Assembly (NCBI GenBank): GCA_963702025.1
Contig: OY969699.1
Span: 544,001-608,000 of the forward strand
Direction of reading: 5' to 3'
DNA: 64,000 bases
Origin: an uncultured bacterium
Lineage (GTDB): Bacteria; Babelota; Babeliae; Babelales; Vermiphilaceae
Below the pieces are notes generated by a model. That model was given only the letters and a program-made list of their open reading frames with translations, did not search any database and was not told where the DNA came from. Positions 8,436-11,514 of this stretch are shown here, piece after piece (positions within the stretch are counted from its first letter, which is position 1; each line of letters begins with the position of its first letter). The position numbers and the translations under genes were made by a program.

Positions 8436-10049
8436 ATGTGGTATCTTAGACTGTTTTTTGTCGCGATAAGCATTTTTGCCGGTGGCCATCTTGGTGCCAT
8501 GAAAAGGGTTGCTGAGCAAGAGACTGCCGTGGAAAAAAAGCAGAAAATAGATATAAATGCTATTAAAAATCAGCTTGAAAAAGTAATCTTTGAAAAATAC
8601 TCTGATTACTTCTTACCCGAAATTGAACAGCATTTTACGCAAATCAAAGAAACTATTTTAGCGGATATACCAGCTTTACAAAATCCAATTATTATTAAAC
8701 AATTGTTATCATTGCCTTTAAATCCCTTGATAAAAAAATTCTTAGAACTCCTTCAAATATGCATTGGTTCTAGTGTTGAGAGCCAGTTTATTATTATTAT
8801 CGATGCAAATGGCAAAGAACAATTTTTACCAAAAAATATTGCATTGCAAGCAAACACCATAAAGGATCTCTATGAGGCAGCACTAAAAGGAGAGTGTGAA
8901 ATTGGGTTTGAAGGGACTCCCAATATTCCCATAAAAGCAATTTCACCGGGACTCCTTGGATTTATTGCAAATTTTATGACAGCTAGAGCAGGAAATGAAC
9001 ATCAATTTCGACGAGAATTTTTTGACAACTATTTGAACGATATAAAAGCATCTAAGCCTGGATTTTTACCTTTTATTAATGAAAAATTCTTGATCAATCT
9101 CTTGGAAGCAGGAAATTTTTTAGATTTTAGATTATTAATGGAATTTGCTTCATATCTTTTGGTTGATACTTTTCTTAAAAATTTGAAGCATCCTTCCCAA
9201 TATCCTGCGATTCCGGGCTTTGTAGATGAAGAAGATGAAGAGGAATTAAAAAATCAATATGAATCAATTGCATTAGAAAAATTTTCAGAAAACTTACCGG
9301 CACATGCGCGGGAAGTATTTTTATTTGTTGCTCAAATGGTTGGCTTGGAATATCTAAATTACTTTGTTCTGGATAAATATTCATTCAAGGTGGATATTCC
9401 AGTATCACTCAAAGATATTTTTGAGTATCTTCCACAATATTGGGAGCAGCTAGCTATTGAATCCAGGCGCAATGAGGGGCGTGAATATCTGTATTTAGAC
9501 CTGCAAGGCTTATTTATTTCAAGTTTAGATGGCATTAATTTAAAATTTACCGATGCGCAGTTAAAGCAAGTTACCTGGCTTGATTTGCATGTTAATTCAT
9601 TTGTGTTGGATGCTCATCTCCTTCAAAAATTTCCCCAACTACAAATATTGGATCTTTCAGCAAATCGCCTTGAAAAAATAGATGCCGATAGTTTTAGTAA
9701 TACGCATGAGTTAACGGATCTCTTGTTATCGGGTAATGATAATCTCCGTTATATAGATCCTAAAGCCTTTTTAAATACACCACGTTTAGCGGTTCTTAAT
9801 ATTACTAACTTGGCGATAACTGCTGAAAATATTCAAGAAATTAAAGATGCGGTGACGCAAGCATGGATTTTGCTGCAATGGGGCCAACCGCATTTAAAGT
9901 CGAAACCAAAGTTTGTTGAGATCGTAAAAAAGCGGGCGCCGGAATTATTGGTGATAACAGAACCGATAGTGCCGGCTCAGGCACCCGGAGAGGAAGCGGA
10001 AGAGCAAGAAGATATAGAAATATTTGAAGGCTTTGAAGCGCAATTATGA
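8436..10049 (+). CDS. Secreted Skp1-like domain + LRR protein with bipartite NLS-like motif
   Basis: Signal peptide, KRx9KKQK, Skp1-like IIIDANGKEQFLPKNIALQANTIKDL...LINLLEAGNFLDF, and LRRs (LQILDLSANRL, LTDLLLSGN). Confidence 0.75.
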   Translation: MWYLRLFFVAISIFAGGHLGAMKRVAEQETAVEKKQKIDINAIKNQLEKVIFEKYSDYFLPEIEQHFTQIKETILADIPALQNPIIIKQLLSLPLNPLIKKFLELLQICIGSSVESQFIIIIDANGKEQFLPKNIALQANTIKDLYEAALKGECEIGFEGTPNIPIKAISPGLLGFIANFMTARAGNEHQFRREFFDNYLNDIKASKPGFLPFINEKFLINLLEAGNFLDFRLLMEFASYLLVDTFLKNLKHPSQYPAIPGFVDEEDEEELKNQYESIALEKFSENLPAHAREVFLFVAQMVGLEYLNYFVLDKYSFKVDIPVSLKDIFEYLPQYWEQLAIESRRNEGREYLYLDLQGLFISSLDGINLKFTDAQLKQVTWLDLHVNSFVLDAHLLQKFPQLQILDLSANRLEKIDADSFSNTHELTDLLLSGNDNLRYIDPKAFLNTPRLAVLNITNLAITAENIQEIKDAVTQAWILLQWGQPHLKSKPKFVEIVKKRAPELLVITEPIVPAQAPGEEAEEQEDIEIFEGFEAQL

Positions 10050-10068
10050 AAAATGCAAAAGGGGAAAA

Positions 10069-11514
10069 ATGATGAAAAATTATTTTAAAAGGTTCGGTAA
10101 AAAAATCGGTACAATGTTAGTTCTGATAAATTTTCTTACCGCCAACGATCTTCTGGCAATGAAAAGATCGGCTGAAGAAGTTGCGCGTGCAAAGAAACAA
10201 AAAATTGCTGCCGTTGAAGCCGCGGGAGAAACGATTACCATCGTTGATGAGAATTGCAAAGAGATCTTGCTGCCAAAAAAAATTGCTTTGCAAGCCATAA
10301 CCATCAAAAATCTTTATGAAACAGCAAGGGAGGAAGGGTGCAATGAAATTACTCTCCCATCAATTTCTGCCGAGCAACTTGCTTTGATTGCTGATTTTAT
10401 GTGGCATAGATCAAACTATGAGCATAAATTTCGATTGCCGCTGTTTGAAGATTATATCAAACAAAGCGAGAGGAATGCTTCTTTCCAAAAATTATTAAAC
10501 GATAAAGATTCACTCGTCAGCTTGTTAAAAGTAGGTAATTTTTTACAGTTTCGGTTATTTATGGAATTTGTGGCCTATCAAATTGTTAAAAAGTTTTTGC
10601 CGACTATTATTGAGGAAGATGAGAATATACTTGCGGTAATTGTTCAGATAAAAAAGATAGTAGAAGAGATGGCAGAAAATTTGCCGCCACGAGCAGCAGA
10701 AGTACTTCGTTTTGTGAGTGAAATGATTGAAATGAAGTATATTGATTATAAAGACGGTAAATTAATGGTGGCTCCAGTCATATTTTCCCAGTATGAAATT
10801 CCCGTATCCCTGCAAGATATATTCGAATATCATCCCAATTACTTTGATGAGTTAAAAGTGACTGTTGATAAAAAGACTAACTTGGAATTGGAATTAGAAT
10901 ATCAGTGGTTAACTAGTCTCGAAGGTATTACTACGAAATTTAATGCCAAACAGAGAGCCTCAGTTGCAATTCTGTATTTGGATGGGAATGCTATTCACAT
11001 ACTTACTCGGTATATTTTAAAAGATTTTCCAAATCTTAAAGGGATTGGTATTCGAAAAAACGGTTTAAGAGAGATTGCTCCCGATGCGTTTGCCAGTACA
11101 CCTTCCTTGAAGACTATTGATCTGTCAGAAAATCCTGATCTCACCTTTATTGATCCGGCCGTCTTTTTATACACACCAAACTTGATTCGCCTCTATATTG
11201 ACGCCTTAAAACTAAAGCCGGCTAATATACAGGCAATAAAAGATGCAGTGCAAACAGCGTGGAAAGATGTAACGGTAAAAAAAGCGTGGATAGCAAATGG
11301 AAAACCACCCTATATAAAACCTTCACAAGAATTTAGAAAAAAAATTCTTGAAAAATATCAAGGGAGAATATCTGAATTGCAGATATTCGAGAAATATCCT
11401 CAAGAAGAATTGCAAGAGATGGAATCTTCGCAAGAAGAAATAACTTCTGAGTCGCAAGAATTAGGTTCTGAAGAAATTAGCTCCGAGACAGAAACCTCAG
11501 AATCGGAAGAATGA
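10069..11514 (+). CDS. Paralogous secreted Skp1-like + LRR protein with NLS-like motif and acidic tail
   Basis: Start MMKNYF after a GGGG RBS. KRx8KKQK. [27 protein letters not shown]...[13 protein letters not shown]. LRRs (LKTIDLSEN). Confidence 0.75.
   Translation: [481 protein letters not shown]

Follow-up and report, generated by a model that had tools for sequence, protein, structure and literature searches.

Tandem fusions of a Skp1-type core with leucine-rich repeats in a Babelota genome: candidate one-chain adaptors for a host cullin

Two adjacent genes on the + strand, both real and both intact open reading frames (ORFs), encode proteins in which a core resembling that of eukaryotic Skp1 is fused to leucine-rich repeats (LRRs) behind a likely signal peptide. 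They lie in a window of 64,000 nucleotides (positions 544,001 to 608,000 of contig OY969699.1, assembly GCA_963702025.1) from an uncultured bacterium of the Babelota (Vermiphilaceae). Passages of PMC6561590 and PMC4378268 describe Candidatus Babeliales, or Dependentiae, as a phylum of intracellular protist parasites. On the strength of sequence and predicted structure we suggest, with moderate confidence, that the pair would reach the protist host by export and serve there as one-chain substrate adaptors on a host cullin, most likely Cul1. The two genes and their cores are as follows (NLS, nuclear localization signal).

8436..10049, + strand: gene 1 (P0001), 537 amino acids; leader, NLS-like motif, unassigned segment, Skp1-type core, helical linker, LRRs, acidic tail
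10069..11514, + strand: gene 2 (P0002), 481 amino acids; leader, NLS-like motif, Skp1-type core, helical linker, LRRs, acidic tail
8781..9188, + strand: gene 1 Skp1-type BTB core, residues 116-251, B1 to A5; PIKA in place of PxPN, AGNFLD in place of AANYLD
10222..10599, + strand: gene 2 Skp1-type BTB core, residues 52-177; TLPS in place of PxPN, VGNFLQ in place of AANYLD
8547..8780, + strand: gene 1 extra segment of about 80 residues without a family match, shared with the orthologue P0005 and no other protein

The Skp1-type core

Judged by profile comparison, the resemblance of the pair to Skp1 is beyond chance. A profile of 25 eukaryotic Skp1 proteins (7 of 7 tested carry both Skp1 Pfam domains) finds gene 2 (E 1.1e-11) and gene 1 (E 1.8e-9) among the 1484 ORFs of the genome, the best reversed-sequence match reaching only E 0.35. 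When every row of the source genome is withheld, the profile of the bacterial family described below still recovers P0002 at 5e-17 and P0001 at 3e-12, and in the ESM Atlas residues 48-190 of P0002 adjoin Skp1_POZ clusters at 0.93. Taken singly, the two proteins match neither Pfam Skp1_POZ nor any PDB sequence (Pfam, phmmer); a two-sequence profile of the pair searched against the PDB missed the domain, and a word-based alignment search matched 0 of 2206 candidates. In the Pfam and HHpred type of check proposed in a preliminary description of this DNA, the single proteins miss Skp1_POZ, and hhalign of the pair against Skp1 returns 97.3% (E 2e-11).

The preliminary description had aligned this segment by eye with eukaryotic Skp1. 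For the core the alignment holds, but it does not extend to the whole of Skp1, since the eukaryotic profile is covered at positions 5-127 (P0002) and 6-120 (P0001) of 163 and ends at helix A5. The F-box-binding helices 7-8 (PF01466) were found in 0 of 28 family rows of domain plus linker and in 0 of 251 genomes; the positive control, 7 of 7 eukaryotic Skp1 proteins, was run separately, with no control registered within the 251-genome scan. Because the match of the family profile halts at about human residue 133 and the PF01466 tail is missing, the pair have a Skp1-type core and are not to be filed as Skp1, and the earlier wording that they carry Skp1 itself has to be given up.

An AlphaFold model of gene 2 (33-row alignment, no templates; predicted local distance difference test, pLDDT, 89.0; predicted template modelling score, pTM, 0.86; pLDDT 90.9 for the domain alone) places the elements in the order B1-B2-A1-A2-B3-A3-A4-A5, which is BTB topology with two insert helices between A3 and A4. 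After A5 come two further helices and then the LRRs. Foldseek matches to the model, 38 as listed, are mostly LRR proteins of extracellular type; seven are Skp1-sized chains, of 137-162 residues, from Skp1 or Skp1-cullin-F-box (SCF) entries (E 5e-4 to 1.6e-3, target TM 0.49-0.62), and among the 38 there is neither a Cul3-type BTB protein nor Elongin C. Failure to predict a BTB/Skp1 fold had been named beforehand as grounds for abandoning the idea; a BTB fold was obtained, with Skp1-complex chains among its structural matches. The A2 and A4 motifs are kept in the pair, the latter as GNFL.

The two genes are paralogues (39% identity over 368 columns, E 8e-66, BLASTP), and the Skp1-type core is their best-kept part (44% identity vs 39% overall); it is well kept also in the orthologues P0004 and P0005. 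Close homologues are few: four matches comprise self, one orthologue per gene and one LRR-only protein, and seven genomes of the same genus yielded no orthologue of the pair, only LRR-level matches. Gene 2 starts at an ATG preceded by a purine-rich site; an alternative TTG at 10024 would add 15 codons. No RNA record is listed for 8436-11514, which weighs neither way.

The source genome is a single contig of 1,596,033 bases, 95% complete and 0.88% contaminated. A transketolase encoded near the pair has its nearest relatives in records that are labelled Ca. Babeliales/Dependentiae or bear no label. An artefact or eukaryotic contamination was considered and rejected on account of this single 1.6 Mb contig and its 0.88% contamination, a GC content of 35-36% against 39% for the genome, the bacterial neighbours, and the same fusions in many genomes.

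A family across the Babeliales

The core belongs to a family that a first profile found in 18 of 201 Babeliales genomes and a second one in 56 of 201 (43/158 high-quality genomes; 41/118 genera), with up to 20 matches per genome, often in tandem. At E <= 1e-5, Pfam Skp1_POZ alone matches 33 of 251 phylum genomes and none of 14 control genomes. Nearly all of the 39 distinct ORFs listed from fetched loci begin with a leader followed by the domain, behind which stand WD40, LRR, ankyrin or further kinds of domain. The repeat domains are interchangeable: the fusion partners are LRR, WD40 and ankyrin repeats, all typical cullin substrate-binding repeats, and also a peptidase. Four further leader-domain-LRR paralogues and one leader-domain-M48 peptidase are encoded in the source genome; the M48 fusion and one of these paralogues (24.7 vs 21.9 bits) exceed the Skp1_POZ cut-off.

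A library of 1.84 billion proteins contains 8863 that match at E <= 0.001. Of these, the best 150 are either tail-bearing Skp1 of eukaryote type or fusions that lack the tail. By hand, 72 of the 150 were sorted as fusions of the present type, a few of them with no clear leader. Taxa are not given in the library; several of the 72 are proteins from Babeliales loci, the others being assumed kin. In 66 fusion rows the PxPN columns hold P 48, L 56, P 36 and N 28 times, so that the motif is kept in about half, and the N and L of AANYLD are found 54 and 66 times. The family consensus reads TIKNLL, IPLP and AANYLDI.

Against the PDB, the 38-row Babeliales family profile ranks Skp1 first (E 6e-25, human residues 2-133), then Elongin C (3e-14) and the BTB domain of SPOP (0.31). 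PF03931 matches 21 of 28 family domains at E <= 0.1. Pfam BTB (PF00651) has no match in the pair and a weak one in 4 of the 28. Quick, unrooted trees (145 columns) are mostly poorly resolved; eukaryotic Skp1 falls on one side of an unstarred branch (SH-aLRT, the Shimodaira-Hasegawa-like approximate likelihood ratio test, 87-88), and a single clade of bacterial fusions is not rejected (approximately unbiased test, p-AU 0.926). Thirteen long or BTB rows were left out of the later trees. As the trees have no Elongin C row and no root, no donor of the core is named.

None of the 251 phylum genomes encodes a cullin that scores over the cut-off, and therefore the cullin partner must be the host's.

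Several relatives depart from the common architecture. In two (L083:298-1659, - strand; L090:1411-2787) a leader and Skp1-type core are followed by Peptidase_M48, that is, by a metallopeptidase in place of the repeat. Leader-bearing beta-propellers with a more classical BTB-type domain occur at L084:214-3390 (- strand), where Pfam BTB is above its cut-off, and at G000:C1:728244-730010, 720644-722956 and 722941-725142; to judge from these domain assignments, adaptors of the Skp1 type and of the BTB type seem to coexist in the source genome. In P0016, P0017, P0007, L133 and L098 the Skp1-type core is repeated in tandem, with two or three copies per protein. P0078 and P0053, in which Skp1 core, LP helix and RCC1 are fused without a signal peptide, are placed with the bacterial fusions by weak trees. 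At the end of P0078 is a lysine/tyrosine motif like that of giant viruses; a viral scan with P0078 returned no viral contig relative. Full-length cullins with about 40% identity to the Cul1 of stramenopiles are encoded in two giant-virus records (L139, L142).

Within the window, the ORF at 46167-47246 (+ strand) encodes a leader, KKRK, an acidic middle and about 50 C-terminal residues that resemble the A3-A5 half of the Skp1-like LRR paralogues of the source genome (E 1e-4 to 5e-4 against them by phmmer; not significant against the wide profile), and may represent a truncated or shuffled Skp1-type domain. Three leader-bearing proteins at 42121-42765 (- strand), 59584-60138 (+) and 60289-61188 (+) look by eye like ankyrin-repeat proteins, typical of the phylum. 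Near its C-terminus the last has an F-box-like stretch, LPRDLI, also by eye; a comparable placement of the F-box is found in ankyrin-F-box proteins of poxviruses and Orientia.

Beside the pair, a stub at 11564..11677 (+ strand) has the upstream site and the first 13 or so codons in common with gene 2 and is likely to be the remnant of a third tandem copy; the local alignment of the DNA scores 119, and 300 shuffles reach at most 100. The flanking genes at 7318-8322 and 11751-13208, both on the - strand, encode respectively a protein with a weak match to the ComEC 'Competence' domain (E 0.008) and a leader-bearing protein of metallo-beta-lactamase fold (E 2e-4) that has LRR-like sequence close to its end.

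Linker, repeats, leader and export

The remaining parts of the two proteins, all on the + strand, are these.

8436..8498, +: gene 1 predicted Sec signal peptide, residues 1-21, cleavage between A and M; by eye and own hydropathy rule
8502..8546, +: gene 1 KR-x9-KKQK, NLS-like, residues 23-37; fits the monopartite pattern, bipartite spacer too short
9189..9404, +: gene 1 helical linker in which LP, at residue 287, lies in a degenerate helix like that of an F-box; no Pfam F-box match
9405..9860, +: gene 1 LRR cap and LRRs, LRR_8 at residues 400-458
9942..10046, +: gene 1 acidic tail, from the composition of the last residues
10069..10158, +: gene 2 predicted signal peptide, residues 1-30, weak h-region; by eye and own rule
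10162..10203, +: gene 2 KR-x8-KKQK, NLS-like, residues 32-45
10600..10806, +: gene 2 linker, predicted helices 187-202 and 207-220 around LP at 205, replacing Skp1 helices 7-8
10807..11259, +: gene 2 LRR cap and LRRs, LRR_8 at residues 321-378
11407..11511, +: gene 2 acidic tail, from the composition of the last residues

Much of the outline given in the preliminary description, which had the pair as tandem paralogues with signal peptides, a basic motif, LRRs and acidic tails, agrees with these features. LRR_8 lies above the Pfam cut-off in both proteins (E 1e-10 and 2e-16), aspartate and glutamate make up 31% and 40% of the last 35 residues, and in both the leader ends at A|M and is followed by KR-x8/9-KKQK. 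The signal peptides themselves are likely; they were judged by eye and by a lenient hydropathy rule that 857 of the 1484 genome ORFs pass.

Family members often have an F-box-like 'LPxE' helix after the core. Helix 1 of the F-box, which also touches Cul1, follows the pattern [LIVM]Px[ED][LIMV], and this occurs after the core in 23 of the 72 fusions, against 1.7 by shuffling (relatives not being independent). Pfam F-box models (PF00646/PF12937) match neither linker of the pair and 0 of 28 family rows.

KKQK fits the classical monopartite pattern K(K/R)x(K/R) in both proteins, as a pattern match only. Of the 53 family fusions with a detectable mature start, 10 have K[KR]x[KR] among residues 1-25 of the mature protein, against 1.6 when shuffled (0/300 shuffles as high; relatives are not independent), and the motif is weakly enriched among the leader proteins of the source genome (20/381 vs 13.4 expected; 9/300 shuffles as high). 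Two further proteins, at L086 (G000:C1:267333-268772), have leader, KKQK and LRRs with the same LRR cap and no Skp1-type core; on this sequence evidence, modules in these proteins are mixed and matched.

Export beyond the cell envelope might proceed through type II secretion. Two secretins are encoded in the source genome, and the sections of PMC4378268 that deal with Babela report type II secretion as its only system; signal peptides are present on 44% of Chromulinavorax proteins, according to a passage of PMC6561590.

Candidate cullin adaptors, rival explanations and known systems

We propose that the proteins would leave the cell by Sec export followed by type II secretion. The core would then bind the N-terminus of a cullin through its Skp1 surface, replacing both Skp1 and the F-box protein, while the helices after A5 might substitute for Skp1 helices 7-8 and F-box helix 1 and so place the LRRs at the substrate position. 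Host proteins bound by the LRRs would be ubiquitinated and degraded, and KKQK may direct the pair to the nucleus. Of the effector model in the preliminary description, this retains a Skp1-type BTB fold followed by LRRs, a likely signal peptide in front of both, and a bacterial source from a group of protist parasites; the full Skp1 and the bipartite NLS have been dropped.

A number of observations weigh against this proposal. PxPN in B3, the Cul1-contact motif according to a passage of PMC1257465, has been lost from both proteins (PIKA in gene 1, TLPS in gene 2). Their LP helices, LPAHA and LPPRA, fall outside the strict pattern, and the best F-box score, in a single relative among 12 short linkers, is 14.6 bits against a cut-off of 20.5. 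The Skp1 chains found by Foldseek superpose at a root-mean-square deviation of 7-11 A over 161-177 columns, and the LRRs look like the 'typical' LRRs of extracellular proteins (Nogo receptor, TLRs) rather than those of SCF receptors. In the trees the pair are among the most diverged family members, on a long branch. A profile of the six LRR-type domains of the source genome ranks Elongin C (3.5e-8) ahead of Skp1 (4.5e-5), and the ESM Atlas returns Elongin C clusters for gene 1, both of which bear on the type of cullin. The motif once read as a nucleoplasmin-type bipartite NLS is not canonical, with spacers of 9 (gene 1) and 8 (gene 2) residues where the definition given in part of PMC4892583 has at least 10 between P2' and P2. 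An N-terminal NLS-like motif is absent from five other clear paralogues of the source genome; KKQK, which also opens two LRR-only secreted proteins, would be a portable, optional signal. In this phylum Sec cargo is not known to reach the host cytosol.

These observations leave room for other explanations. The proteins might be decoys that bind Cul1 at the Skp1 site and chiefly take the place of host Skp1/F-box modules (or that LRR partners shelter), damping SCF activity and not steering degradation. The same domain evidence fits such a role, loss of the tail means that host F-box proteins cannot be loaded, and some members repeat the domain two or three times or have no repeat domain. We consider it unlikely, however, because most members bear repeats of substrate-receptor type, diversified by tandem duplication, and variable LRRs would be superfluous in a decoy. 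An equally low probability attaches to one-chain adaptors that serve another cullin. They could have an Elongin C-like core with its own A5, as a fused BC-box equivalent, for Cul2/Cul5, or a BTB-like core for Cul3, and would account for the Elongin C rankings and Atlas clusters, the NF instead of NY in A4, the missing PxPN and the weak Pfam BTB matches. The wider family is nevertheless much closer to Skp1, the model has A5 (predicted at its residues 115-129) and the A3-A4 helical insert, which Skp1 has and Elongin C lacks (as set out in part of PMC1257465), and of these adaptor types only Skp1 chains are among the Foldseek matches listed.

Decay of the pair would explain the lost PxPN, the degenerate LP helix, the long branch and the merely LRR-level matches in seven same-genus genomes; the core would no longer bind a cullin and would serve to cap the fold of secreted LRR binders or to oligomerise them. 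Part of PMC4209131 argues that chlamydial expansions are partly drift. Against decay, the core is the part best kept between the paralogues and in their orthologues, with the A2 and A4 motifs retained, and we again give this reading a low probability. Least probable are LRR proteins of the periplasm, the surface or the vacuole lumen that never enter the host cytosol or nucleus. A Sec leader guarantees the periplasm only, and the LRRs have an extracellular look, but NLS-like motifs are enriched in the family, the genome has secretins, and a Skp1-derived domain has no known partner outside the eukaryotic cytosol and nucleus.

Compared with eukaryotic Skp1 (PF03931 + PF01466), the best PDB match of the family profile, the one-chain adaptors that we favour share the BTB core from B1 to A5 and the A3-A4 insert; they differ in lacking helices 7-8 and in being fused to LRRs behind a predicted signal peptide, and in the pair PxPN is absent. 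Elongin C, the Cul2/Cul5 adaptor, shares the same Pfam POZ model and is the best PDB match for the source genome's six LRR-type domains, but it lacks A5 and is a free subunit, whereas here A5 is present, the core is fused to LRRs and the wider family is nearer Skp1. The Cul3 adaptors (BTB-BACK-Kelch, MATH-BTB) offer a functional parallel, in that one chain does the work of Skp1 plus an F-box protein, an analogy drawn in a passage of PMC1257465; theirs is a long-form dimeric BTB with BACK/3-box, and SPOP matches the family only at E 0.31.

The nearest bacterial precedent is in Protochlamydia, where sections of PMC1257465 count 43 BTB-LRR proteins in strain UWE25 and sections of PMC4209131 a PEX1 family of 73 members with type III signals. 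These too are bacterial proteins in a protist host, with an N-terminal BTB fold and C-terminal LRRs in one chain, expanded in tandem and proposed as cullin adaptors. Set apart by description, they are BTB/POZ proteins (by implication Cul3-type) with type III signals, whereas the pair are Skp1-type, have predicted Sec leaders and belong to another phylum. Because the Protochlamydia proteins have been described, the one-chain kind is already known.

F-box effectors (Legionella AnkB and LegU1, Agrobacterium VirF, the F-box-LRR GALA proteins of Ralstonia) likewise hijack the host SCF and use a repeat domain as substrate receptor, but they need host Skp1. The preliminary description held that bacterial SCF effectors use F-boxes. 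This accords with a 2026 review, whose section on adaptors of cullin-RING ligases covers F-box effectors only and leaves BTB and Elongin unmentioned (PMC13720258, that section); the concept of a BTB fold and LRRs in one chain is nonetheless not new, given the 43 to 73 Protochlamydia proteins. The available text of PMC12172432 has no BTB, POZ or Skp1. No description of a Skp1-type one-chain cullin adaptor in Dependentiae/Babelota was found among the papers listed from the searchable literature, outside which lie supplements and most subscription papers, whose domain tables could already list Skp1_POZ in Dependentiae; nor was a report on the interface residues found there. The Skp1-type version of the bacterial one-chain kind is apparently new, and the family apparently undescribed.

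More tentatively than for the pair itself, we suggest that Dependentiae captured Skp1, removed its F-box-binding tail, added an F-box-like helix and varied repeats, and export the products as phylum-wide one-chain Cul1 adaptors, some with a nuclear address of their own. These might then be the first bacterial effectors to replace Skp1 itself, re-inventing for Cul1 the single-chain design of BTB-Cul3. The SCF hijackers described from bacteria use F-boxes and rely on host Skp1, and a Skp1-core fusion would sidestep both Skp1 and the controls that act on it. If this is true, Skp1 and the F-box protein can be merged into a single chain for Cul1, a step that eukaryotes took for Cul3, and the proteins would be natural single-chain cullin recruiters for work on targeted degradation. 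The signal-less RCC1-fused relatives, with a giant-virus-like tail, hint at exchange inside protist hosts. For a little-studied phylum of parasites, the family, with hundreds of copies in 56 of 201 genomes, provides a testable function for secreted proteins that are at present unannotated.

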